Shown here piece after piece: positions 1 to 55,129 of a DNA stretch of 64,000 bases. Source of the DNA: an uncultured Bacilli bacterium (GTDB lineage: Bacteria; Bacillota_I; Bacilli_A; RF39; UBA660); NCBI GenBank assembly GCA_934130005.1, contig CAKOXD010000003.1, positions 41,980-105,979 of the forward strand, in the 5' to 3' direction. The notes beneath the pieces are model-generated. The model searched no databases. It had not been told where the DNA came from and worked only from the letters and a program-made list of their open reading frames with translations. The number at the start of each line of letters is the position of its first letter. The first letter of the stretch is position 1. A program made the translations under genes and the position numbers.

Positions 1-1164
1 TGTTGAAGTATTGTAAGTGTATATTTCATTTTTTCCATCAAATTCTTTTATTTTTTCTCCATTTACTGTTATTTCTTTTAAATAGTTATTTGGATTTCCT
101 TTATTTGGCAATGTAGTTGTAGTTGTTTGTTCTTTCCAAACTGTTATATAAAATATATAGTTACCATTTTTATAATCATTTTTTGTTTTATATGCATTAT
201 ACATCATAGATGCTTCTGATTTTGGTGCTTGAATATTTTGCATATATTGATGATTTCCCCAACATGTACCTGTAGCATCCCATTTTTGTAAATAAAGGGT
301 ATTTTGTCCATCATCTATATATCCTTTTCCAACAAATTTAGCTCCACCAATTATTGCCTTATATTCACTATCCCATCCTTGACTCTTAGCATAATTAAGT
401 CCTGATTTTATAACTTCATCAGTTGTACTACCATTTGCTTGAATATTAAAGTAATTATAATAATTTTCATAACCTTTATATTTTCCTGATACAAGTGCCC
501 CTTTAGTTGTACCTTGTTCTTGTTTCATTCTTGCTGCTAAAAAGTAAGCATTTACTCCATTTTGATTTGCTGCTTCTATTATAACTTCTGAGTATTTTTT
601 ATTTGATCCAGGACATGTAGTATTATACATAAATGAATTTTTTAAAATATTTTCTATTCCTGTTACTGTATAATTATTATCACTATAATTTAACATACTA
701 AACATAAATATATCTTGTTCATTTATAAAATTTAGAGAATTTAAATAATAAATTACAGTTTGTTTATTAGCTGCATACCAATATCCACCACTAAATCCTG
801 TGAATTTGTTTGTATAATAATTATATGCCCAACTATCTGTTGATTTATAACCATCATCACCTTGTGTTAAACTTCTACCTTTTATATTTCTATAGGTATC
901 ATAATATTCAATGTTAACCATTGTATTCCAATTTAATTTTGTATTATAAGTTTTACTACTACATTTATAATTAGAGTTATAATTATCAGGATATTTTGCT
1001 ACAAAAATAGCATTTGGATATATTTTGTGCAATTCTTTTATTTTTTCTTGATAACTACTTGGAAATTTATTTAGTTCTTCTTCATATGATAATGCTTTTA
1101 CATTTTTAATAAAGCAAAAAGAGAATATAAAAATGAATATAAATAATATTTTTTGTTTTTTCAT
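1..1164 (-). CDS. Secreted glycoside/peptidoglycan hydrolase-like protein (glucosaminidase-like domain), C-terminus off window
   Basis: Minus-strand ORF with start at 1164..1162 (MKKQKILFIFIFIFSFCFIKNVKA signal peptide), continuing past coordinate 1. My translation gives ...NTLYLQKWDATGTCWGNHQYMQNIQAP... and a C-terminal ITVNGEKIKEF cadherin-like beta-sandwich-type segment. The family call is from motif resemblance only. Confidence 0.35.
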   Translation of the reverse strand, partial: MKKQKILFIFIFIFSFCFIKNVKALSYEEELNKFPSSYQEKIKELHKIYPNAIFVAKYPDNYNSNYKCSSKTYNTKLNWNTMVNIEYYDTYRNIKGRSLTQGDDGYKSTDSWAYNYYTNKFTGFSGGYWYAANKQTVIYYLNSLNFINEQDIFMFSMLNYSDNNYTVTGIENILKNSFMYNTTCPGSNKKYSEVIIEAANQNGVNAYFLAARMKQEQGTTKGALVSGKYKGYENYYNYFNIQANGSTTDEVIKSGLNYAKSQGWDSEYKAIIGGAKFVGKGYIDDGQNTLYLQKWDATGTCWGNHQYMQNIQAPKSEASMMYNAYKTKNDYKNGNYIFYITVWKEQTTTTTLPNKGNPNNYLKEITVNGEKIKEFDGKNEIYTYNTST

Positions 1165-1264
1165 TTTACTACCCTCTTTCTTTAACATACTTTATATATA
1201 TTATAACAAACATTGTTATTATTGTATATAAGTTAATTTTTATATTTTTTTTCTTTACATCATT

Positions 1265-1762
1265 TTACGTTTTTTCTGATATTACTATTAGTCTTTTATT
1301 TTGTTTATTAGTACATGTCATAAGTATTAATGTTTTATTTTTATATTTTTTATTTAATATTTCATAATCATCAACATTAATTTCTTTTATTGTTTTTACT
1401 TTATATATTTCTTTTTTATCTAAATAAATTTCTATTAAATCATTTTCTTTTAAGTAATGTATTTTATGAAATACGTTATTTGTATTATGACCTGCAAGTA
1501 CAATCAAATTTTTTTTATTTATATCCATCATTCCTACATAGTTTTTATCCAGTATTTCATTTGTTGTTCCCTTTTTTATTATTTTATTTATGTTATATTT
1601 ATCTATTTTTATATACCCTTTATATTCTATATAATTATAATTATCATGTATATTATTGATTATTTTATTTTGATAATTATTTATTTTATATTCAAAATTA
1701 TATTTTATTATAACTATTAGTATTGATAAAAATATTAATACAAATCCAATTTTATTTTTCAT
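1265..1762 (-). CDS. Sortase (class B-like), N-terminal TM anchor
   Basis: ORF track 165 aa. It has an N-terminal hydrophobic anchor, a LAGHNT His motif, and TLILMTCTNKQNKRLIV (TLxTC catalytic Cys followed by Arg). It overlaps the 3' end of the upstream adhesin gene. Confidence 0.65.
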   Translation of the reverse strand: MKNKIGFVLIFLSILIVIIKYNFEYKINNYQNKIINNIHDNYNYIEYKGYIKIDKYNINKIIKKGTTNEILDKNYVGMMDINKKNLIVLAGHNTNNVFHKIHYLKENDLIEIYLDKKEIYKVKTIKEINVDDYEILNKKYKNKTLILMTCTNKQNKRLIVISEKT

Positions 1763-3794
1763 GTTTTAAACCTGACAATATGAGTGCTAATCCAATAAAT
1801 ATCAAATATGTTACAATAGTATTTATAATAATATCTTTATTACTTGTTTTAGGATAAACTATTTTTTTATTTATTAATTCTATTTCTTTTATTATTAGTT
1901 GTTCATCTTGTTTATTATTTAAATCTATATCATATATATTTTCATCTATATAAAATCCAGTTAATGTTTCTATTTCTTTTATATAATATTTTCCTATTGG
2001 AAGATCTTTTGATATAGCTATAGAATTATTTGTTGTTAAAATTTCAATTAATTCATCTTTTTTATATATTATTTTATTATTATCTAATATATCTTCTTTA
2101 GCATATAAATTAAATTTAACATTTGATAATTTTATAAGTTTATTATTTAAAAGTTTTCCATATTTTAGTATTTTTATCTTTCCAATTTGTTTTTTATTAT
2201 ATATGTTTAATACCATTTCTTCATCACTATTTATAGAAAATTCTATGTTTTTATCTTTTATATATCCTACGGGTGGTATAATTTCTTCTAACAAATATTT
2301 TCCACCTTTTATATCTAATTCAATTATTCCATTTTTTGTTTTAAATATTTCTCCATTATTTATATAATTATTACTATTTAAATCTTTTATTTTAAATGAT
2401 GCTTCTTTTAATATATTTTCTTTTGTATCAATATCTTTTTTTAAAATTTTTAATTTTGTTTTTATAATTTCATCATATAAATTAACAATTTTATCTTTAT
2501 TACTCTTTATTTCTACATAAAAATCATTTACTTTTTTATATCCAAACGTTGTATTTTTTTGAACTATTTTATATTTTCCATATATAAGATTTGTATATGC
2601 TTCTCCATTTATATTGGTAGTTATTTTATCTACTAATTTGTTATCCATGTCATATATTTCAAATATTATATTTTTTTCTTTTGATTTTAATGAATCATTT
2701 TTTAAATATTTTTTTATTATTAATTTACTTTTAATTATATCTTCTTTTAATTCTATTTTAGTGTTTTCTTTATCGATTTTTATATTATATATATTATTAT
2801 CTATTTCATAACCAAGTGGTGCTTGTACTTCTTTTAATATATAATCTCCATATTTTAAATCTTTTACATTAGCTATTCCATCTTTACCTATAGTTATTGT
2901 TTCTATTAAATTATTATTTTTATCATATAAATTATATTTAGCATTTTCTACACTAGCACTTCCTCTTTTTAAACTATTTAAGGTTTCACTATCTATTTTT
3001 TTTATTTCTAATTTTCCTGAATATACTTCTACTTCTATTTCTTTTTCTATTTTATCAATATATCCCCTTATCATTATAGATTGTCCTTTATTTGCTGTAT
3101 ATGGTATTGTTATATGTGAATGATTTCCATCTTTTTTTATTAATTTAATTTTATATTTTCCATCTTTTTTTGGATTTATTATTAATTTATTATTTTCTAT
3201 TTTTAAATTTAATGAACTATCTGCTTCTATATTAAATTCATTTAATGATTCAATATTCATTTCTTTTGTATCATTAATAGACATTTTTATATTTTCTATA
3301 CTTGGAAGTTTATTATAATTTTCTATTAATGTTTCTATTTCCTTTTCTTCTTTTTGAAATCTTTCAATTCTTTCTCCTTTAAATTTATTTGTATAGTATA
3401 TATCAGCATCTTTATCCATTTCTTTCCACAGCATTATTTGAGTTATAGCATACCATTTTAAATCCGTATGATCTTTATAATTATATCCAAAATAAGCTAT
3501 TTCTTTTATTCTTTTATATTTCTCTGTTGAGATATTAAGATACTTTTCTATCGAATAAAATCTAGCCGTATATAATTCATCTTCATATAAGGTATCAGAT
3601 GGTGTTAAACAATATACCGGTAAATTATCTCCCTCTCTTTTTATAACTCTCATTAGTTGTGATTTAGTAAAATCACCTTTTTTATATGTAGCATATACAC
3701 CTGTTACATAATTGTCTTCATAAAAATATTCTGCCTTTACATCTGTTGTTAAACATATAATTATAAATGTAATTATAATTAAAAATTTCTTCAT
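1752..3794 (-). CDS. Cell-wall anchored thioester-domain (TED) adhesin with repeated CnaB/SpaA-like domains
   Basis: 680 aa with a signal peptide. The N-terminal domain carries VYCLTP (Cys) and AITQIMLW, matching the TQxA(I/V)W thioester signature. At least three ~90-aa repeats follow, with a prealbumin-like pattern (…GKYKI.., ..GYI/YEID..). The C-terminal YPKTS sequence is followed by a hydrophobic helix and a basic tail (sorting signal). Confidence 0.7.
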   Translation of the reverse strand: MKKFLIIITFIIICLTTDVKAEYFYEDNYVTGVYATYKKGDFTKSQLMRVIKREGDNLPVYCLTPSDTLYEDELYTARFYSIEKYLNISTEKYKRIKEIAYFGYNYKDHTDLKWYAITQIMLWKEMDKDADIYYTNKFKGERIERFQKEEKEIETLIENYNKLPSIENIKMSINDTKEMNIESLNEFNIEADSSLNLKIENNKLIINPKKDGKYKIKLIKKDGNHSHITIPYTANKGQSIMIRGYIDKIEKEIEVEVYSGKLEIKKIDSETLNSLKRGSASVENAKYNLYDKNNNLIETITIGKDGIANVKDLKYGDYILKEVQAPLGYEIDNNIYNIKIDKENTKIELKEDIIKSKLIIKKYLKNDSLKSKEKNIIFEIYDMDNKLVDKITTNINGEAYTNLIYGKYKIVQKNTTFGYKKVNDFYVEIKSNKDKIVNLYDEIIKTKLKILKKDIDTKENILKEASFKIKDLNSNNYINNGEIFKTKNGIIELDIKGGKYLLEEIIPPVGYIKDKNIEFSINSDEEMVLNIYNKKQIGKIKILKYGKLLNNKLIKLSNVKFNLYAKEDILDNNKIIYKKDELIEILTTNNSIAISKDLPIGKYYIKEIETLTGFYIDENIYDIDLNNKQDEQLIIKEIELINKKIVYPKTSNKDIIINTIVTYLIFIGLALILSGLKHEK

Positions 3795-3867
3795 ATTATT
3801 CCTCCTTGGTTATAAATAATATTAAAATTTTTAGAAAGTTGCAACTGAATATTTTTGAATTTTTTGT

Positions 3868-3900
3868 ATAAAAAAAAAGCAGTTTTTCTATTTCTGCTTA
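3868..3900 (-). terminator. Rho-independent terminator after the pilin-like gene
   Basis: aaagcagtttttctatttctgctt forms the AAGCAG/CTGCTT stem, followed by a T-run on the minus strand. Confidence 0.5.
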
Positions 3901-3934
3901 CATATTTAATTTATTTGAAAATCTTTTATTATAT

Positions 3935-4357
3935 TTAATTAAATTCATCATTAAAATTTTTTGTTGTATACATTCCTGGGCAATTAATATATGGTGTGTA
4001 TGTTTTTTCTTCACTATTATATATAACATAACCATTACATGTAATATTTTTATCAAATGGATCTTTTATTTCATTAATTAATCCTTTATTTTTTAGTTTT
4101 TTTAAAGATATAATAGTATTTTCTTTTTTATTAAATTCATATTTTTTACTAGCATTTTTTAATTTATCTTCAAGTTTTATATATTCATTTGGTATTTCAA
4201 TATTTGAAGGTTTTATTATCGGATCAGCTATATTTGAGATATTTTCTTGTTTTATTGTTTTTGGTTTATTCCAGTAAGCCATAAATCCTATTAAAACAAA
4301 TATACTACATCCTATAAAGACTAAAAGTTCTGGAAGTCCAAATCCTTTATTATTCAT
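3935..4357 (-). CDS. Small secreted/membrane protein with degenerate prepilin-type N-terminus
   Basis: 140 aa. MNNKGFGLPELLVFIGCSIF has Gly-Phe followed by Glu at +5 and a hydrophobic helix, resembling a class III signal. Its start overlaps the stop of the upstream NrtR-like gene (TAATG). Confidence 0.3.
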   Translation of the reverse strand: MNNKGFGLPELLVFIGCSIFVLIGFMAYWNKPKTIKQENISNIADPIIKPSNIEIPNEYIKLEDKLKNASKKYEFNKKENTIISLKKLKNKGLINEIKDPFDKNITCNGYVIYNSEEKTYTPYINCPGMYTTKNFNDEFN

Positions 4358-5004
4358 TAAAACAGATCCTTATCAGCTATATCTTTAAATCTATATAATT
4401 TAGCTGGTCTACCTGTCATACTAATATTTTTATCCATTGTATCTTCTATAATGTCTAATTTTAGTATTTTTTTTCTAAAATTTCTTCTATCTAATTTTTT
4501 ATTTAACACTTGTTCATATAATTTTTGTAATTCTGGTAATGTAAAATCGCTTGGAAAAAATATTTTTAACCATTTTGTATTTAATAATTCTTGTTTTAAT
4601 TTATTAACTGATTCTTCTATTATTATTCCATTATCATATATTGTTTTTGGAATACTATTTATATTAAACCATTCTGCTTCTTCTGTTATATTAAATCCAA
4701 TGTTAGCTTTTACTGTATCAACTATTCCAATTACAGATATTCCAACAATTCTAGTATCTGGTATACGATCTATATTAGAAAAAACATTGCATGTTTCTTT
4801 ATATATATCTGTTACTCCAACTCTTTCTTTTAATGTTGCATCAGCACATTCTTCTAATGTTTCTTTGTTTAACATTAAATTACTTGGTAACATCCAATAT
4901 CCTTTAAATGGTTCATCTTGTTTTTTAAATAATAATATTTTTATTTCTCCTTTATCAAAAGTAAATAAATTAATTAATACTTCTATTTTATTATTAAAAT
5001 TCAT
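4357..5004 (-). CDS. Nudix hydrolase-domain / NrtR-like transcriptional regulator
   Basis: 215 aa with an N-terminal Nudix-like fold. The C-terminal part (…TMDKNISMTGRPAKLYRF) resembles the winged-helix domain of NrtR-family regulators. Confidence 0.55.
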   Translation of the reverse strand: MNFNNKIEVLINLFTFDKGEIKILLFKKQDEPFKGYWMLPSNLMLNKETLEECADATLKERVGVTDIYKETCNVFSNIDRIPDTRIVGISVIGIVDTVKANIGFNITEEAEWFNINSIPKTIYDNGIIIEESVNKLKQELLNTKWLKIFFPSDFTLPELQKLYEQVLNKKLDRRNFRKKILKLDIIEDTMDKNISMTGRPAKLYRFKDIADKDLF

Positions 5005-5074
5005 TAATTACACTCCTTTGTGTCCTATTGGACATAGAAAATTATAATACAAAAATAAATTTCTGTCAAATTAA

Positions 5075-24725: not shown

Positions 24726-25340
24726 TTATTTGTATTTCATAATTTTTTTATTACTACTTGAAACATATTCTTCAAGATATTGATGTTCATTAAGTGATTT
24801 TTTTACATCAATATTATAATCTACTACTGTACAATGTGCATAAACATCATCATAATATTCTCTTATTCTTACACCACCTAATGATTCCATAGTTTTCCAT
24901 GATGCTGGATTATTTAAATCGGCATCCATAAAAACTTTATCTATTCCATATTCATCACATACTTTTAATCCTAAATATAAATTAATTTTATTATATCCTT
25001 TTTTTCTTTCACTTGGTCTTATTCCATAACCAATATGTCCACCAAATTTTTTTAGTGTTTCATTTAAAGCTAATCTTATATTAATCATACCTATAATTTT
25101 GTTATCATTTTCTCTTATTAAGAAATATGTTCTTGCTGGAACTTTTTCTTCATTTGGTATTCTAGCATAGTCTTCTTCTAATTTTTCTAACCAGCCTTCA
25201 TAATTATCTAAGTATTTTTTTAAACTACTAGAACCATTAATATCAGAATTAGCATTTAAATGTTCTTGAATATATTCTATCGCTTCTTCCTTTCTTTCAA
25301 TAGATGGAATTTCTAAATATAATTTTTCCATTAATATCAC
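24726..25340 (-). CDS. GNAT-family N-acetyltransferase
   Basis: 204 aa. An acetyl-CoA-binding-like segment (GYGIRPSERKKGY) and a GNAT-like length. Confidence 0.55.
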   Translation of the reverse strand: MILMEKLYLEIPSIERKEEAIEYIQEHLNANSDINGSSSLKKYLDNYEGWLEKLEEDYARIPNEEKVPARTYFLIRENDNKIIGMINIRLALNETLKKFGGHIGYGIRPSERKKGYNKINLYLGLKVCDEYGIDKVFMDADLNNPASWKTMESLGGVRIREYYDDVYAHCTVVDYNIDVKKSLNEHQYLEEYVSSSNKKIMKYK

Positions 25341-25349
25341 CTTTTCTTC

Positions 25350-25522
25350 TTATATTTTTTTAAAATAGTACACATTCTCTAGTAATTGTAATTTTTCAAG
25401 CATTCTTGTTTTTATCAATTTACCACCCATGTGTTTATAAAATTCATTACTAGGATTTCCAATAAGGCATCCTATTAACATTTTATCATAACCCATATTT
25501 TTTAATTCTTCTATTCTAATTA
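25350..25522 (-). pseudogene. Possible remnant of a second GNAT-like gene (C-terminal fragment only)
   Basis: Minus-frame translation gives …KLIRIEELKNMGYDKMLIGCLIGNPSNEFYKHMGGKLIKTRMLEKLQLLENVYYFKKI* after an in-frame stop. It has no start or N-terminal domain. Confidence 0.25.
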
Positions 25523-25604
25523 ATTTTCTTTTAATAAATTAAAATAATTCTATCTATCTTGTATATAAATTTATTATCATAAATTGAATGTTTCTAAAGT
25601 TTAT

Positions 25605-25705
25605 TTTTGATATCTTGATATATTAAGTATAATTCCCATACTACATAATGTTATTAATAAACTAGAGCCTCCATAACTTAAAAATGGAAGTGTTACACCT
25701 GTTAC
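25605..25705. repeat. Direct repeat copy 1 of the ftsW 3' end (101 bp, 1 mismatch to 26319..26419)
   Basis: tttgatatcttgatatattaagtataattcccatactacataatgttatta(a/g)taaactagagcctccataacttaaaaatggaagtgttacacctgttact. Copy 1 is followed in frame by its own TAA (25601..25603). Confidence 0.8.
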
Positions 25706-25781
25706 TAGTTCAAAGGGAGATAATTTCATAAGTTGCAGTTCTAAGGAGAGATGATTTTTATAATTATTTATCACAAAAACA

Positions 25782-25810
25782 TTGTATATAGAATATTTGC
25801 TTACTATAAT
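25782..25810 (+). promoter_or_regulatory. Sigma-A-like promoter for the small hydrophobic peptide ORF
   Basis: TTGTAT (25782..25787), a 17-nt spacer and TATAAT (25805..25810). Confidence 0.4.
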
Positions 25811-25876
25811 ACTTTTAGGAACATTTAGTTGTTGAGTGTCTACCTCTACTCTACATAGAGAGGAGGTTATTGATAT

Positions 25877-25960
25877 ATGAGCAAGAAGGATTTTTTAATC
25901 TCAATCTTACTTTTTATAATCATCTTATTAATAGCTTTACTCTTCATTATCTTGAAGTAG
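25877..25960 (+). CDS. 27-aa hydrophobic peptide (candidate type I toxin-like small membrane peptide)
   Basis: [32 protein letters not shown] lies 7 nt upstream. The RBS is embedded in the imperfect hairpin CCTCT…AGAGG. The imperfect hairpin GGCACT…AGTGCC lies downstream. Confidence 0.3.
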
Positions 25961-26111
25961 TATCAACTATAAATAAAAATGGCACTCATCTTTCAAGATA
26001 AGTGCCTTAACGTATATTACGGGTAGACATTCAGCTTGACGAACTAAATGTTCCCTTTTTTATTATATGCAAGAATACTTGCTACATACATAATAACATA
26101 TTTTTAATCAT

Positions 26112-26285
26112 TTAGCAATTATTTGATAAAAAAATATTTTTTATTATTTTTTCTATCTCAAAAGATATACATTCACTACCAGTTTCATCTATAACGCTAA
26201 ATACTTTCCCATAATTATTTAACCAAGAAAAATCTTGATATTCTCTTAATTTAAATTCTACATCGTCTATTTTTTGTATTATCAT
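26112..26285 (-). CDS. 57-aa ORF, possibly an N-terminal gene fragment
   Basis: MIIQKIDDVEFKLREYQDFSWLNNYGKVFSVIDETGSECISFEIEKIIKNIFLSNNC. It is below the ORF-track cutoff and I recognised no domain. Confidence 0.2.
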   Translation of the reverse strand: MIIQKIDDVEFKLREYQDFSWLNNYGKVFSVIDETGSECISFEIEKIIKNIFLSNNC

Positions 26286-26313: not shown

Positions 26314-27411
26314 CTATCTTTGATATCTTGATATATTAAGTATAATTCCCATACTACATAATGTTATTAGTAAACTAGAGCCTCCATAACTTAAAAATGG
26401 AAGTGTTACACCTGTTACTGGTATTAATCCTGTTACTACCATTAAATTTAATAATGCTTGAAATGATAGACCAAAAGTAATACCAAATGCTAAAAATTTA
26501 CCAAATGGTTCTTTTATATTTCTTGATATTTTAAGTCCTTTAATTATAATTATTAAAAATAATGTAGCAACTATTAATATTCCCATAAATCCAAATTCTT
26601 CACTTATAATTGAAAATATAAAATCTGTTTGAGGTTCTGGTAAATAAAAGTGTTTTTGTCTTGAATTTAAAAATCCATATCCAAATAAACCACCTGGACC
26701 TATAGCATATAAACTCTGTATTATTTGAAATCCGCTTCCTAAAGGATCACTCCATGGATTTAAAAAGGATAATATTCTTTTTAATCTATAAGGTGCGACT
26801 ACAATAAGTCCTGTTATTCCAAGTAGTCCTATTAAAAATAAATATATAAAGAATTTTAAATTAACCCCACCTACAAATAATAATCCAATTATTGTTACTA
26901 TTATAATAAATCCTGTTCCAAAATCTGGTTGTAACATAATAAGAGCAAATATAATAAAAGTTATAAATAGAATTGGTAATACACCTTTTTTGATATTCTT
27001 TATTATTTTTTCATTATTGCTTAAATATTTTGATGTAAATATTATAAGTGCCAGTTTACAGGCTTCACTTGGTTGAATTCCAAATGATCCTATTCCAAAC
27101 CAACTACGACTTCCATTTCTAACTGTTCCTATTCCTGGAATTGCTACTAATATTAATAAAATAATACAAGCAAATAATATTATATTGGCTTTTTCATAGT
27201 ATATTTTATAATCTATTTTGCTTATTATTATCATCAAAAACATACCAATTAATAAAAATAATGCTTGATTTTTCACAAATTTAAACGGATCGTTAAATTT
27301 GTATTCTGCCCATACATAAGATGCTGAATAAACCATGATAACTCCAAATATACTAATTGTTAAAATAGCTAAAAATAATGTATAATCTATACTGTTTTTT
27401 TTCATAACCAT
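26314..27411 (-). CDS. FtsW/RodA/SpoVE family peptidoglycan glycosyltransferase (SEDS)
   Basis: The track ORF runs 26314..27489. The likely start is MVMKKNS (27411), where the MraY TGA overlaps the ATG. About 10 TM helices and conserved SEDS blocks (…PSEACKLALII…, …GLLFVGG…). Confidence 0.85.
   Translation of the reverse strand: MVMKKNSIDYTLFLAILTISIFGVIMVYSASYVWAEYKFNDPFKFVKNQALFLLIGMFLMIIISKIDYKIYYEKANIILFACIILLILVAIPGIGTVRNGSRSWFGIGSFGIQPSEACKLALIIFTSKYLSNNEKIIKNIKKGVLPILFITFIIFALIMLQPDFGTGFIIIVTIIGLLFVGGVNLKFFIYLFLIGLLGITGLIVVAPYRLKRILSFLNPWSDPLGSGFQIIQSLYAIGPGGLFGYGFLNSRQKHFYLPEPQTDFIFSIISEEFGFMGILIVATLFLIIIIKGLKISRNIKEPFGKFLAFGITFGLSFQALLNLMVVTGLIPVTGVTLPFLSYGGSSLLITLCSMGIILNISRYQR
26319..26419. 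repeat. Direct repeat copy 2 (authentic 3' end of ftsW/spoVE-family gene)
   Basis: It matches 25605..25705. Confidence 0.8.
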
Positions 27412-28401: not shown

Positions 28402-30306
28402 CTAACCTAACATTAGTTTTACTACTTCACCTTCTAGTATTCTTTCATTACTACTAGGTGATTGATATATTACTTTTTCTCCTTCTCCTGTATATTCAAC
28501 TTTAAAATCTTTTAATTCCTTTAATGCATCTTTTAATGTTTTCCCTTCTACATTAGGTACTTTTATATATTTTTTATCATTATAATTATATTTTTTTTCA
28601 CTTGCTCCATTTGGTTTTTTAATATTAAGTATCCTAATTGCATCGTTTAATATTACCTTAGCTATAGGTGCTGCTATTGTTCCACCATATTGTGTTGCTC
28701 CCTTGGCGTTATCAATTGCTATATATACAACAACTTCTGGATCATTTGCTGGTAAAAATCCTATAAATGATACTATATAGTTTCCTACCATATATCTTCC
28801 ATCTTTTACTTTTTGAGCAGTCCCTGTTTTTCCTCCTACTCTATAACCATCAATAAAAGCTGTTCTTCCTGTTCCATTTGTTACAACACTTTCAAGTGCA
28901 TATCTTACTTTTTTACTTGTATCTTCGCTTATTACTTTTCTTACAACTTGGGGTTTATTTTCCAGTATTACTGAATTTGTTTCTGGTTCATTTATACTTT
29001 TTACAATATATGGTTTATATAATATTCCACCATTTATTGCTGCACTAACTGCTGTTATTTGTTGAATTGGAGTTACCGATACTCCTTGGCCAAATGCAGT
29101 AGTTGCAAGTTCTACCGGTCCTACTTTGTCTAAACTAAATAATATTCCTTTACTTTCTCCATTTAATTCAACCCCTGTTTTCTTACCAAAACCAAATTTG
29201 TTTATATATTCAAACAATTTTTCTTTTCCTAATTTTTGCCCTATAGTTACAAATCCTGGATTGCAAGAATTCTCTACTACTTGTAGATATGTTTGACTTC
29301 CATGACCACCGTGTTTCCAACATTTAATTCTAGCATTTTCTACTTTTATACTTCCTGAATCATGATAATGGTCATTTTCTAAATCTATTAATTTTTCTTC
29401 TAAGGCACTTGCTAATGATATGATTTTAAATGTACTACCTGGTTCATATGTCATCCACACAGGTAAATTTCTATTTATTTCTTCTACTTTATAATTTTTA
29501 TATTTACTTGGTGAAAAATTAGGACGAGATGATATTGCAAGTATTTCTCCTGTTTTTGGATTCATAGCTATACCCAATGCTTGATCTGGATTATATTTAG
29601 ATACCGCATTATCAAGTTCTCTTTCAAGTGATTCTTGAAGTTCAAAATTTATAGTTAAAGTCATATTCATTCCATCTTGTGGTTTCTCATAACTTTCTTC
29701 TAATTCTAATTTATTTCCTTTTGCATCACTAGCATATTTTATCGAACCATATTCTCCTGTTAAATACTTATCATAAGTAAGTTCTAATCCACTTAATCCT
29801 TGATTATCTATTCCAACAAATCCTATTGTATGAGCTAGCATTTTGTCATATGGATAATATCTTTTCGATTCTTTTATAAGATATACTCCATCTAATTTTA
29901 AGGCATTTATTTTGTCTGCTACTTCATATGATAATCTTCTTCCAATTGGATGAACTCTTTCTATTGATGTTCTTTTATTAACATGTTTGTACATTTCTTC
30001 ATATGATGTATTTAGAATGTTCGCTAATTCTTTAGCAACTACTTTTTTATTTTTGATTTGATTAGGAACTAATACTAATGATACTGTTGTTTTGTTACTT
30101 GCAAGTATTTTGGAATTTCTATCATATATTTTTCCTCTATTTGCTTCTACTGGTAAATTTCTATTCCATAAGGAACTTGCTAAACTATTTAGTTTTCCAT
30201 AACTAATAACTTGAATATAAAATACTTTTAATATTATCACAACAAATAAAACTACTATAAAAAAAGTTATTATTTTAATTCTATTATGTATATTTTTATA
30301 AAACAT
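28402..30306 (-). CDS. Class B penicillin-binding protein (FtsI/SpoVD-like transpeptidase) with C-terminal PASTA
   Basis: 634 aa. STFK, SCN and KTGTA motifs plus a PASTA domain at the C-terminus. Confidence 0.85.
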   Translation of the reverse strand: MFYKNIHNRIKIITFFIVVLFVVIILKVFYIQVISYGKLNSLASSLWNRNLPVEANRGKIYDRNSKILASNKTTVSLVLVPNQIKNKKVVAKELANILNTSYEEMYKHVNKRTSIERVHPIGRRLSYEVADKINALKLDGVYLIKESKRYYPYDKMLAHTIGFVGIDNQGLSGLELTYDKYLTGEYGSIKYASDAKGNKLELEESYEKPQDGMNMTLTINFELQESLERELDNAVSKYNPDQALGIAMNPKTGEILAISSRPNFSPSKYKNYKVEEINRNLPVWMTYEPGSTFKIISLASALEEKLIDLENDHYHDSGSIKVENARIKCWKHGGHGSQTYLQVVENSCNPGFVTIGQKLGKEKLFEYINKFGFGKKTGVELNGESKGILFSLDKVGPVELATTAFGQGVSVTPIQQITAVSAAINGGILYKPYIVKSINEPETNSVILENKPQVVRKVISEDTSKKVRYALESVVTNGTGRTAFIDGYRVGGKTGTAQKVKDGRYMVGNYIVSFIGFLPANDPEVVVYIAIDNAKGATQYGGTIAAPIAKVILNDAIRILNIKKPNGASEKKYNYNDKKYIKVPNVEGKTLKDALKELKDFKVEYTGEGEKVIYQSPSSNERILEGEVVKLMLG

Positions 30307-51881: not shown

Positions 51882-52502
51882 TTACATATGCTCTACTATA
51901 AATTTAACAACATGGTCTTCATTTACTTTGATTAATTTTTTATCTTCTTCTGTTACTTCTGTAAAATATTTATCTATTTTTTTATATTTAGATATTGAAT
52001 TTAATGGATATCCAGGATTAATTTTTTCGCTTCTTTTATCAACTATATAAAAATCATCTTTATCCCAAGTATATGTATATTCACCATTTTCTGTTATGAG
52101 TGCTAAACCATATACCCATTTAGCATTTAATTTTCCATCTTTTCCATATTTTTTTACAAGTTTTATATAATGTTCTAACATTTCTTCATCTGTTAATGTT
52201 TTACCATTTATTCTTCTTACATATAATCCTGGTTGATCTACCTCATCTACATTTTCTAAGTATAAATTATCATCCATACCAATAGTTGGAATGTTTGTTT
52301 TAGAAAAGCATTCTCTAGCTTTTATTAAAGCATTTTCTATAGCTGTTTTTCCAGTTTCTTCTTGTTCTAATTTTAGATTTATATCTTTTAATGATAGTAC
52401 TTCTATATCATTTTTTAATAATCCTTCACTAAATCTTTTAGCTTTTGTAGGATTTCCTGTAGCAAAAATTATTTTTTTCATATTATACCTCTTTTCAAGC
52501 AA
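51882..52502 (-). CDS. Ham1/ITPase-like non-canonical NTP pyrophosphatase family protein
   Basis: 206 aa with IIFATGNPTKAKRF, resembling the Ham1 N-terminal motif. Confidence 0.5.
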   Translation of the reverse strand: MLEKRYNMKKIIFATGNPTKAKRFSEGLLKNDIEVLSLKDINLKLEQEETGKTAIENALIKARECFSKTNIPTIGMDDNLYLENVDEVDQPGLYVRRINGKTLTDEEMLEHYIKLVKKYGKDGKLNAKWVYGLALITENGEYTYTWDKDDFYIVDKRSEKINPGYPLNSISKYKKIDKYFTEVTEEDKKLIKVNEDHVVKFIVEHM

Positions 52503-52546
52503 AATTATATCATTTATTTATAAAAAATAAAAGTATCTTTTATTAG

Positions 52547-53496
<950 letters not shown>

Positions 53497-53566
53497 TTAT
53501 GTTTTTTTTATAATATGAAATATTATTACCAACTATATATAATAAAAAAAATGGTAATAACCATTT

Positions 53567-55129
53567 TTATGCAACTTTCTTTTTAACCTTATTTACATTT
53601 AAACCATTTATATCTTCTAACATTGTTTCTACTTTTACATTTTCTTCTAATAAATCTAATTTCATTTCTTCTAATCCAATTAGTAATTTTTTTGCTTCTT
53701 GATCAAAATATAATAACTCTAATTTACCTTTTAATTTATCAATTTCATCTATTGTATCTAATAATATATAATTAGTACTTTTAAGACATGAATCTTTATC
53801 TTTTATTTCATTTAAAATTCCTTCATATTCTATCATATTAATTTGTTCATTATTAAATATTGAATTCATACTTCTAATTCTATTATTTAAAATAATTCCA
53901 CTTGTTAATGTTGCTAATAACTTATTTTTAAATATTCCAAATGGTATTAAACTTATACCAACATTTATAGATAATCTAAAGAAATTATTTAATCTTTCTA
54001 GTAATGTTGGCTTATAATTATTTCCTAGCTTATTTATATCTTGTTTTATCTTTTCTATTTCTTCCTTACTTAACATTATATCTTTTTTTATACTATTTTT
54101 AACTAATTCTATTTGTGATTTATCAATAATAATTTCTTGTTTTTGTTTTTTTATTTGTTCTTCTTTTATTTTTTTTATCTTTAAATCATTTATTGACTTT
54201 TCTAAATATTCAACTAAATCTTGAATTGATCTATCATGATAAACTAAATGATTAGGATCTATAGAATTAATATTTTTATATTTTTTTAAGTCTTTAAATT
54301 CATCATTTTTTGATAATTCTAAATATTCTTTTTTTAAATTATTTACTTTTTCTTTTAATGAATTTAATTCTTCTTCTTTATCTAAATTATTATTATTTCT
54401 TATTTTTTGCATATTTAAATATGCATTATTTATTTCTTTATTAAGTTTTTTTATATTCTCTATCATAATTTTATCAGTCTTATTTTCCTTTTTTATTAGT
54501 ACTTTTTTAGGTTTTCTTATGTTATTTATAACTAAAACGCCTGGTATTGTTAATAATGATAAAGTTTTTTTAATTTTATTTTTAATATTATTTGTTTTTT
54601 TTGATTGTTTTATATTTGATTTTTTTATTGTTTTAGTTTTATTAATTTTATATTTTTTTACATTATTATAATCTAATCCTTTTAATTTATTTTCACAAAT
54701 GGTAATTTTATCTTTTATATTTAATAATGTATTTGTTTGATCTTTTATTAATTTAGATTCTTCCCTTGTTTTTAAATTTTTCATATTTTTTAATTTATTT
54801 ATTTTTTTATTTATTTCTTTTTTATACATTTTTAAAACAATAGGTGTTGTTTCATTTTCAATTGTTTTTTCTATATTTAGTATATTTTTATTTATTTTTC
54901 TTAATTCTTTTGATATATCTATTTCTTTTTCTTTTTTATCTCTTTTTACTAATGAGCTGATTGAACTTCCAATCATTCCAAATGTTTTAGTAAAAAATAT
55001 TTTTATTTTATTATCTTTATTTTTTATATTAATTTTTTTTATATTATATGATATATTTTTAAAAAGTTTTTTAAAAAAACTTATTATTCTTAAAATTATT
55101 TTTTTTAAAAAGTTTATTACTTTTTTCAT
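53567..55129 (-). CDS. K/N/E-rich coiled-coil protein with C-terminal hydrophobic segments, unknown function
   Basis: 520 aa of low complexity with predicted long coiled coils and 2 TM-like stretches near residue 400. Confidence 0.4.
   Translation of the reverse strand: MKKVINFLKKIILRIISFFKKLFKNISYNIKKINIKNKDNKIKIFFTKTFGMIGSSISSLVKRDKKEKEIDISKELRKINKNILNIEKTIENETTPIVLKMYKKEINKKINKLKNMKNLKTREESKLIKDQTNTLLNIKDKITICENKLKGLDYNNVKKYKINKTKTIKKSNIKQSKKTNNIKNKIKKTLSLLTIPGVLVINNIRKPKKVLIKKENKTDKIMIENIKKLNKEINNAYLNMQKIRNNNNLDKEEELNSLKEKVNNLKKEYLELSKNDEFKDLKKYKNINSIDPNHLVYHDRSIQDLVEYLEKSINDLKIKKIKEEQIKKQKQEIIIDKSQIELVKNSIKKDIMLSKEEIEKIKQDINKLGNNYKPTLLERLNNFFRLSINVGISLIPFGIFKNKLLATLTSGIILNNRIRSMNSIFNNEQINMIEYEGILNEIKDKDSCLKSTNYILLDTIDEIDKLKGKLELLYFDQEAKKLLIGLEEMKLDLLEENVKVETMLEDINGLNVNKVKKKVA

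Follow-up and report, generated by a model that had tools for sequence, protein, structure and literature searches.

A candidate toxin-antitoxin module of type I, with an end-to-end mRNA helix and a predicted convergent antisense RNA, in uncultured gut Bacilli

The window analyzed here is a 64,000-nucleotide (nt) stretch of the genome of an uncultured gut Bacilli bacterium (GenBank assembly GCA_934130005.1, contig CAKOXD010000003.1). Between positions 25782 and 26118, behind the ftsW gene, it carries a compact module of two overlapping genes: on the plus strand, a gene for a 27-amino-acid (27-aa) hydrophobic peptide and, on the minus strand, a predicted gene for a small antisense RNA that covers the 3' part of the peptide mRNA. 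An earlier note on this DNA had assigned the peptide gene to a candidate type I toxin-antitoxin system. It described a sigma-A-like promoter, a ribosome binding site held in a hairpin, and a 13-nt complement of the leader downstream of the gene, which it took for either a 5'-3' interaction within the mRNA or the mark of an antisense RNA. The promoter, TTGTAT-17-TATAAT, can be read in the sequence where the note placed it. The mRNA is predicted to start at A25817 or G25818, and because position 25818 lies only 7 to 8 nt past the -10 element, the segment GGAACATTTAGTT stands at the predicted transcript start. The local DNA has a G+C content of 21 to 23%.

The module is shared by other strains and other species. 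The FtsW open reading frame (ORF) of the window (26314-27405, minus strand), taken with its MKKNS start, has exact matches on 13 metagenome contigs; the longest-ORF and MVM-start versions have none. Six of these metagenome contigs extend into the region, and the module is present on every one, at 96 to 98% identity. The strain differences are concentrated in the sense promoter, which in the other strains has an extended -10 element (TGTTATAAT). Three fall within the mRNA, at 25863 (a weaker Shine-Dalgarno [SD] sequence in one strain), 25917 (I14T), and 25966 (in the 3' untranslated region [UTR]), and positions 25967 to 26132 are invariant among strains. The relatives of this FtsW in GTDB genomes come from metagenome-assembled genomes of uncultured gut "Bacilli/Tenericutes/Mollicutes," e.g., Candidatus Fimihabitans, placed by NCBI in Mycoplasmatota incertae sedis, and Clostridium sp. 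CAG:1193. An nhmmer search of 80 ftsW loci found the module directly behind ftsW in two other species: it is complete in L021 (peptide MRTKTFILKVLRYISIILLLSTLLVLALKK; L numbers are our labels for loci), and in L040 the promoter, leader, and first codons are lost and the antisense part is intact. A metagenome scan for the 21-base motif TGCAAGNNNNCTTGCTACATACATA gave 51 loci, nearly all with the same architecture, in the order promoter, 5' arm beginning GGAACAUUU, anti-SD/SD hairpin, ORF, post-stop hairpin, 3' arm, and U-run; the 3' arm follows the pattern GACAUUCA...AAUGUUCC, and an A-run precedes the post-stop hairpin. A family hidden Markov model (HMM) built from 43 homologues matched window positions 25818 to 26061 with an E value of 1.7e-43 and gave 69 matches in all, including tandem arrays of two to three copies with a period of ~380 nt. 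The hosts of these more than 60 homologous copies are AT-rich uncultured gut Bacilli or Mycoplasmatota-like bacteria. As for the paralogues that the earlier note had in view, none was found within the 64-kb window by blastn, tblastn, or the family HMM; what stands is a multicopy family with tandem arrays at other metagenome loci. Among 185,579 species genomes, none matched the two-arm pattern GGAACATTTAGTT-N(195-225)-AACTAAATGTTCC; the sequences of the arms differ from species to species, and the representative of this species lacks the module or is absent from the set.

The 13-nt complement is exact. The segment GGAACATTTAGTT (25818-25830) has a perfect reverse complement, AACTAAATGTTCC, at 26042-26054, followed directly by CTTTTTT. 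Taken alone, such a match is only marginal against chance in AT-rich DNA: the window holds ~10 perfect 13-mer inverted repeats within 300 nt (17 k-mer hits), and block shuffles give ~6 such k-mer hits per 64 kb. The GGAACATTTAGTT pair is the only one of the window's repeats with four or more G/C. The 13-mer is, moreover, the core of a longer pairing between 25818-25844 and 26022-26054, which comprises 24 to 27 bp and contributes about -31.7 kcal/mol, the cost when the 5' arm is barred from pairing. We folded positions 25812 to 26062 with RNAfold and obtained -78.8 kcal/mol, compared with -43.8 +/- 4.3 kcal/mol for shuffled sequences (z = -8.06; 0 of 200 shuffles as good).

Comparison between species supports this end-to-end helix. 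In an alignment of 43 distinct homologous mRNAs (A2; 24 pairs), 96.7% of the helix cells were paired, compared with 33 to 46% when the partners were slid by 1 to 3 columns. Double changes occurred at 10 pairs, in 39 cells, and none of 500 shuffles matched the real alignment on any measure; RNAalifold recovered the helix unaided. G-U pairs are frequent (U-G 23 times at columns 9/275 and G-U 35 times at columns 20/258), and because each of these would be an A-C mismatch on the other strand, the helix is selected in the plus-strand RNA and not as a DNA palindrome. Thus, the complementarity is kept at homologous loci, and the reading of the complement as a 5'-3' interaction within the mRNA is borne out, with the 13-mer as the core of a covarying helix that closes the transcript from end to end.

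The ribosome binding site is also held in a structure, as the earlier note had claimed. In the RNAfold model, the SD sequence (GAGAGGAGG, 25858-25866) pairs with an anti-SD sequence (CCUCUACUCU, 25843-25852) just upstream. The lower stem of this hairpin, CCUCC/GGAGG, is conserved family-wide, and the upper stem, whose sequence depends on the subtype, still pairs in single-sequence folds. Among the 43 homologues, the predicted sense promoter has TTG at -35 in 35, a 17-nt spacer in 38, and an extended -10 element (TGn) in 35, and the distance from the -10 element to the GGAAC of the 5' arm is 7 to 8 nt in 39; in the aligned sequences, the position of this promoter relative to the 5' arm is kept across the family.

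The 27-aa hydrophobic ORF lies where it had been described, at 25877-25960. The peptide has a basic N terminus (KK near the N terminus), followed by 21 residues in a row without charge, and ends in Lys; its grand average of hydropathy (GRAVY) is 2.29. The homologous ORFs stay open, at 27 to 34 aa, with the same pattern of a hydrophobic center and charged ends, and they fall into two subtypes, one of 27 aa (MSKKDFLI...ILK) and one of 30 aa (MK(T/K)K...IKK). The ratio of nonsynonymous to synonymous differences (pN/pS) in frame is 0.48 for the 30-aa subtype (n = 23) and 0.23 for the 27-aa subtype (n = 4), compared with 0.75 to 1.7 in the other frames. This frame-specific pattern indicates that the ORF is under purifying selection as a coding sequence.

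The minus strand carries signals of its own across the same DNA. The antisense transcript is predicted to start at A26083, and its fold is far more stable than expected (z = -6.0). It would match the final ~89 nt of the mRNA (overlap 25972-26061) with perfect complementarity, taking in the post-stop hairpin and the whole 3' arm. In the 47 readable distinct copies, the antisense promoter has TTG at -35 in 44 and TGnTAnnAT 17 nt downstream in all 47; the -35 element was not part of the search pattern with which the loci were found. Copies without the exact search pattern still keep the promoter, which together with the 5' hairpin of the antisense RNA forms the best-conserved block between species, and L114 has a compensatory GCAAA/UUUGC variant of that hairpin. 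Another minus-strand box, TATAAT at 26067-26062 within the inverted repeat, was considered as the antisense -10 element and rejected, as it lies inside the RNA and comparison places the conserved promoter at 26118-26090.

The antisense transcript also has a predicted end. The only terminator-like site between 25300 and 26500 is the strong minus-strand one at 26006-25981, and 42 of 43 homologues have a minus-strand terminator hairpin with a U-run; on the plus strand, 42 of the 43 have none, and the other has one negligible match of -0.3 kcal/mol. In a second alignment (A4; 35 sequences), 92.6% of the antisense RNA cells were paired, with double changes at 10 of the 11 terminator pairs. The structures are biased toward the minus strand: the terminator hairpin has -11.5 kcal/mol there against -9.7 kcal/mol on the plus strand (minus more stable in 18 of 23), and the second hairpin has -9.85 against -7.15 kcal/mol (minus more stable in 28 of 31). 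A separate antisense gene, as expected of a type I system, is therefore present in silico, with a promoter, a terminator, and strand-specific structure, and the other reading of the 13-nt complement gains support from a conserved, if predicted, gene on the same DNA. On this comparative evidence, the two readings are true at once. The features are collected in Table 1.

Table 1. Features of the module in window coordinates (positions on the minus strand are given in the direction of transcription, except for the antisense RNA as a whole)
Feature	Positions	Strand	Details
Sense (candidate toxin) promoter	25782..25810	+	-35 TTGTAT 25782-25787, 17-nt spacer, -10 TATAAT 25805-25810
Predicted toxin mRNA	25817..26061	+	~244 nt, start site to T-run 26056-26061
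5' arm of end-to-end helix	25818..25844	+	GGAACAUUUAGUUGUUGAGUGUCUACC; pairs with 26022-26054
Anti-SD/SD hairpin	25843..25866	+	CCUCUACUCU - ACAU - AGAGAGGAGG
ORF, 27-aa peptide	25877..25960 (stop included)	+	ATG at 25877
3' arm and U-run	26022..26061	+	GGUAGACAUUCA...AACUAAAUGUUCC 26022-26054; U-run 26056-26061
Antisense (candidate antitoxin) promoter	26118..26090	-	-35 TTGCTA 26118..26113, 17 nt, extended -10 TGT-TATTAT 26098..26090
Predicted antisense RNA, candidate antitoxin	25972..26083	-	~111 nt, three hairpins
Antisense 5' hairpin	26082..26069	-	GCAAGuauuCUUGC
Antisense hairpin H2	26055..26021	-	GGGAACAUUUAGUU...GAAUGUCUACCC, complement of mRNA 3' arm
Antisense terminator hairpin	26006..25981	-	GGCACUUAUCUUGAAAGAUGAGUGCC, then U-run AUUUUUAUUU 25980..25971

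The copies occur in many contexts. Only one of the 51 metagenome loci, L117, whose module matches that of L021, adjoins ftsW; the other 50 are elsewhere, next to genes for EF-Tu, transporters, tRNAs, and other products. Between contexts, the homology runs from ~45 nt upstream of the mRNA to ~65 to 88 nt past its end, which is to say that it comprises exactly the two promoters and the two RNAs. The earlier note had treated the module as part of an insert beside ftsW; since the same module stands in many unrelated contexts, it is not specific to that insert. A phage origin was rejected, two viral scans being empty save for one chance match within a coding region. Several decayed copies (L040, L114a, L115c, L131, L113, and L135a) lack the toxin 5' end and keep the antisense gene; such losses are the one indirect hint that the peptide may be toxic. 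Around individual copies, we noted tRNA genes ~80 to 100 nt from the module in at least two contexts (L089 3406-3478 and L107 10217-10288), an S-adenosylmethionine (SAM) riboswitch far from the module of L106 (10136-10219), and, in many of the rumen-type copies (L089 to L134), just past the antisense promoter and overlapping its -35 element, a perfect hairpin (AAAAGGAAC-TTGAAAA-AAGTTCCTTTT) that is absent from the window copy. This hairpin could be an insulating bidirectional terminator or an operator.

A short unit (~360 bp) that is dispersed and tandemly repeated, and that often has a convergent gene's 3' end beside it, might instead be a noncoding repeat, such as a mobile element of the miniature inverted-repeat transposable element (MITE) or repetitive extragenic palindromic (REP) kind or a bidirectional terminator cassette located between convergent genes, in which the inverted repeat matters as DNA and the ORF is incidental. 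The inverted repeat of the window extends outward over both TATAAT-like boxes, and the ftsW terminator of the relative L045 resembles the minus-strand terminator of the window; both observations speak for such an element. However, the inverted repeat lies within the unit and is not terminal, and no transposase or target-site duplication was seen. The two promoters hold an exact spacing to the 5' ends of the RNAs, the G-U pairs confined to one strand imply selection on RNA rather than on DNA, and the ORF is under frame-specific purifying selection. On the strand-specific G-U pairs, the internal repeat, and the coding selection, we reject a MITE or a DNA palindrome, and we regard the repeat explanation as a whole as extremely improbable.

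A second alternative denies the window a separate antitoxin RNA: the minus-strand hairpin would simply be the terminator of the mraY-ftsW operon, and the 13-nt complement would be the terminator of the small gene. A single terminator is predicted between the ftsW stop codon and position 25300, the ftsW terminators of the loci L045 and L013 have similar sequences, and the 3' arm can fold a local hairpin in front of the U-run. That local plus-strand hairpin is weak, however (-6.6 kcal/mol in the window; family mean, -7.15 kcal/mol), and the covariation involves the distant 5' arm. Furthermore, a promoter of the family form TTGnnA-17-TGnTAnnAT is present in all of the readable copies, nearly all of the metagenome loci being far from ftsW. 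Read-through from the operon is in any case compatible with an antisense RNA, to whose supply it would add. We consider this alternative very unlikely.

Taken together, these results make it very likely that the module consists of two RNAs and a translated membrane peptide. Its identification as a toxin-antitoxin system of type I, of a sequence family absent from current libraries, is in our view probable. Type I toxins are described as peptides under 60 aa with a transmembrane (TM) helix and charged ends (PMC6563280), and the 27-aa peptide is of this kind, being hydrophobic, with a predicted TM helix and a charged end. The covarying helix, the conserved antisense gene, the coding ORF, and the multicopy arrays all support the interpretation advanced in the earlier note. 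Multicopy occurrence and tandem arrays are shared by many type I loci. A search of the window against Rfam 15 gave no match at an E value of <=10, and seven other loci gave none at the gathering score.

The mechanism that we propose is as follows. The sigma-A-type promoter would yield an mRNA of ~244 nt for a 27-residue, single-helix membrane peptide, presumed to be the toxin. As sequence and comparison show, the first nucleotides of this mRNA pair with the last ones before the U-run to form an end-to-end lock, and the upstream anti-SD sequence buries the SD sequence. Because both ends are protected and the SD sequence is buried, the full-length mRNA is expected to be stable and poorly translated. 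From the other strand, an invariant promoter with an extended -10 element, the stronger of the two, would supply the antisense RNA of ~111 nt, with its three hairpins. The two RNAs would probably make their first contact through hairpin loops that are complementary and lie downstream of the stop codon. The duplex that would then form, of ~89 bp (predicted net energy, -81 kcal/mol), would displace the 5' arm, and the model has the SD stem lengthening from 7 to 10 bp in the complex; with the 3' UTR blocked, 34 of 43 family sequences show a slight gain in pairing of the SD sequence. The duplex would be a substrate for RNase III, and decay of the toxin mRNA together with tighter translational repression would result, both of which experiments have shown for bsrG/SR4. 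If less antisense RNA is supplied, an activating step of some kind (processing or refolding) would let the peptide be synthesized and inserted into the membrane. In the window, no terminator is predicted from the ftsW stop codon to the antisense terminator, and read-through transcripts of mraY-ftsW should for that reason also carry the antisense sequence.

Several observations weigh against this interpretation. Six representative peptides matched no Pfam-A or NCBIfam toxin family at an E value of <=10, and the searches of these two libraries found no similarity to the sequences of validated toxins. The mean unpaired probability of the SD sequence is 0.24 in the free mRNA, 0.19 in the antisense-bound form, and 0.22 in a 3'-truncated form; because folding leaves the SD sequence mostly paired in each of these states, the model as it stands has no activation step. 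The idea that the SD sequence is switched on and off in the manner of a riboswitch was not supported, the sequence being paired in the free, bound, and truncated models alike. Two second copies in tandem arrays, L127b (L127 1423-1586) and L135b (L135 4884-5031), keep the promoter, leader, SD sequence, and ORF and end right after the stop codon or the hairpin, without the 3' arm and the antisense gene. These look like toxin-only remnants, and they count against the interpretation because an unguarded copy would be expected to be lethal under a strict addiction model. Finally, because the antisense promoter motif served to find the loci, the set is biased toward copies that retain the antisense gene.

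The same observations bear on a third alternative, that the module is a real gene pair without being a toxin-antitoxin system, the peptide being a small membrane protein of an ordinary kind, such as one that belongs to a membrane complex or regulates it, with a cis-antisense RNA and a stabilizing end-to-end helix. The structural evidence speaks for selection on two RNAs and a peptide and is silent on harm, the antisense-less copies L127b and L135b would pose no difficulty, and an SD sequence that is permanently sequestered in silico fits low constitutive expression equally well. The module travels alone, however, the homology between contexts stopping at the two promoters, and the lack of a constant neighboring gene argues against a partner complex. 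Its paralogues are multicopy, tandemly amplified, and divergent in sequence; the pseudogenized copies drop the 5' end of the peptide gene and retain the antisense gene; and repression in three layers (lock, anti-SD sequence, and strong antisense promoter) is typical of toxins. We therefore think the ordinary gene pair unlikely and the type I toxin-antitoxin system the better account of the module.

A more specific form of the toxin-antitoxin reading, in which the antitoxin attacks the lock of the mRNA by strand displacement and the module is at the same time coupled to a host operon, seems to us decidedly improbable as a joint claim. In its first part, the antitoxin would avoid the translation-initiation region and aim at the 3' arm of the lock. 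The 5' arm would in effect be a shortened copy of an antitoxin hairpin that competes for the same 3' arm, and the fate of the toxin would be set by displacement between intramolecular and intermolecular helices. In its second part, where the module lies directly behind an essential operon (mraY-ftsW here and in two related species), the read-through 3' UTR of that operon would supply antitoxin. If this were true, expression of the peptide would be coupled to the transcription of cell wall and cell division genes.

The surroundings of the module in the window show traces of rearrangement. A 108-nt direct repeat (97% identical; 25602-25709 and 26315-26422), which is a duplicated 3' end of ftsW, flanks a 605-bp segment with the module and a 57-aa ORF, and all six strain contigs are alike in this respect. 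The displaced copy of the ftsW end reads ...ISRYQK, and the functional copy reads ...ISRYQR. Two related species have the module directly against ftsW, without the duplication and without the 57-aa ORF. Integration with a replacement gene end and illegitimate recombination are both possible origins of the duplication. The 57-aa ORF (26112-26285, minus strand) lies between ftsW and the antisense promoter and is not part of the module; it has no Pfam match, just 11 unnamed homologues (45 to 93 aa) in 5.8 billion proteins, and no homologue near ftsW in related species, and may represent a fragment or else a small orphan gene. On the other side of the module, strains with an identical FtsW have a segment of ~3.4 kb (L001 7833-11293) with genes for a 130-aa protein, an HTH_38-like protein, 289-aa and 199-aa proteins, and a GNAT protein, to which only 63 nt (25503-25565) and a 48-aa GNAT fragment (25350-25496) correspond in the window; the module thus borders on a strain-variable region. 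Upstream of mraY, the gene for a penicillin-binding protein (28402-30306, minus strand; 634 aa) is intact in the window and in L002 and is split in L001 and L003 (positions 1-5015) by an insert of ~4.5 kb that encodes a 576-aa large serine recombinase (Resolvase/Recombinase/Zn_ribbon). Elsewhere in the window, the G+C content peaks at 0.35 at 52001-54000, compared with 0.19 to 0.30 in the remainder, and ARAGORN found no tRNA genes in the window.

The T1TAdb database lists 24 families of type I systems, nearly all from cultured Proteobacteria and Firmicutes (PMC8594479), and the narrow phylogenetic range of such catalogues is thought to be a search artifact (PMC12390103). In the literature that we searched, no paper on type I systems in these gut Bacilli or Mycoplasmatota-like lineages was found. 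The module would add a well-delimited candidate family, supported by covariation, from genome-reduced, very AT-rich uncultured lineages of the human and ruminant gut. More than 40 natural variants over both RNAs provide material for studying how a lock and an antisense RNA coevolve on shared DNA, the compact RNA-controlled module may be usable in synthetic biology, and the results permit annotation of a 27-aa ORF and a small RNA overlooked by gene callers. The evidence from comparison is unusually clean and comes from an unexplored lineage, yet specialists expect new type I families.

Among known systems, the Clostridioides difficile modules CD2517.1-RCd8, CD2907.1-RCd9, and CD0956.2-RCd10 also have convergent, overlapping genes with an extended stretch of complementarity, which points to degradation as the mechanism (PMC6563280), and they too were new sequence families found outside homology searches. 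Their toxins differ in having 34 to 59 aa and a Lys-rich C-terminal tail, most of them lie in prophages or beside CRISPR arrays, there is no sequence similarity to the module, and an end-to-end lock is not described for them in PMC6563280.

The Fst/RNAII system (par of Enterococcus faecalis plasmid pAD1 and chromosomal Firmicutes loci) is likewise convergent, its antisense RNA being on the 3' side and leaving the ORF uncovered (PMC8594479). Its RNAs interact outside the overlap (PMC8594479), whereas here the overlap itself would be the site of interaction. In addition, Fst and RNAII share one bidirectional terminator, whereas two are predicted here, at 26021-26061 on the plus strand and at 26006..25971 on the minus strand. 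The module matched neither the Fst family nor an Rfam model. The Fst toxin RNA has a 5' helix that protects its 5' end and a stem that sequesters the ribosome binding site, and the module here is built likewise.

The closure of the mRNA recalls hok/Sok of plasmid R1 and enterobacteria and aapA/IsoA of Helicobacter pylori, in which full-length toxin mRNA is locked by a long-distance 5'-3' interaction with strong covariation (PMC6733600). Chromosomal multicopy loci and local SD-sequestering hairpins are further common traits. In those systems, however, the anti-SD sequence is in the 3' end, and the antitoxin pairs with a 3'-processed mRNA, at its 5' or translation-initiation region. In the module, the SD sequence is masked by an upstream anti-SD sequence (25843-25852) and lies outside the end-to-end helix, and the antisense RNA, complementary only to 25972-26061, would pair with the 3' arm. 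Their hosts are gram negative, and there is no sequence similarity. The module thus shares with hok and aapA the 5'-3' closure and not the 3'-end anti-SD sequence or the 5'-pairing antitoxin.

An antisense RNA on the 3' side is the layout of gram-positive families (PMC8594479), and in genetic layout the module stands nearest to bsrG/SR4, txpA/RatA, and the C. difficile modules with convergent genes (PMC6563280). It shares with bsrG/SR4 of Bacillus subtilis and the related systems txpA/RatA, bsrE/SR5, and yonT/SR6 a small hydrophobic peptide gene and a convergent antisense gene that overlap at their 3' ends. The overlap here (25972-26061) covers the 3' part of the candidate toxin mRNA, and the antisense U-run abuts the region just past the stop codon. 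There are differences: we found no peptide or RNA sequence similarity and no protein-family or Rfam match that would place the module with TxpA/BsrG or RatA/SR4; the peptide is shorter (27 to 30 aa); the overlap barely reaches the ORF, the last codons being covered in the 30-aa subtype; the target of the antisense RNA would include the 3' arm of a 24- to 27-bp end-to-end helix; and the modules are not in prophages, the viral scans being empty. On the other hand, SR4 has been shown experimentally to act on bsrG in two ways, by mRNA decay and by translational repression, the distant binding of the antitoxin extending the SD helix from 4 to 8 bp after a first contact through the terminator loop (PMC3834814). 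In our model, too, the SD helix would lengthen on antitoxin binding, from 7 to 10 bp, and the terminator hairpin of the antisense RNA is complementary to a hairpin of the mRNA and could provide the first loop-loop contact. The layout most resembles that of the 3'-overlapping Bacillus systems, of which bsrG/SR4 is the example, with a lock of the hok/aapA kind joining the two ends of the toxin mRNA.

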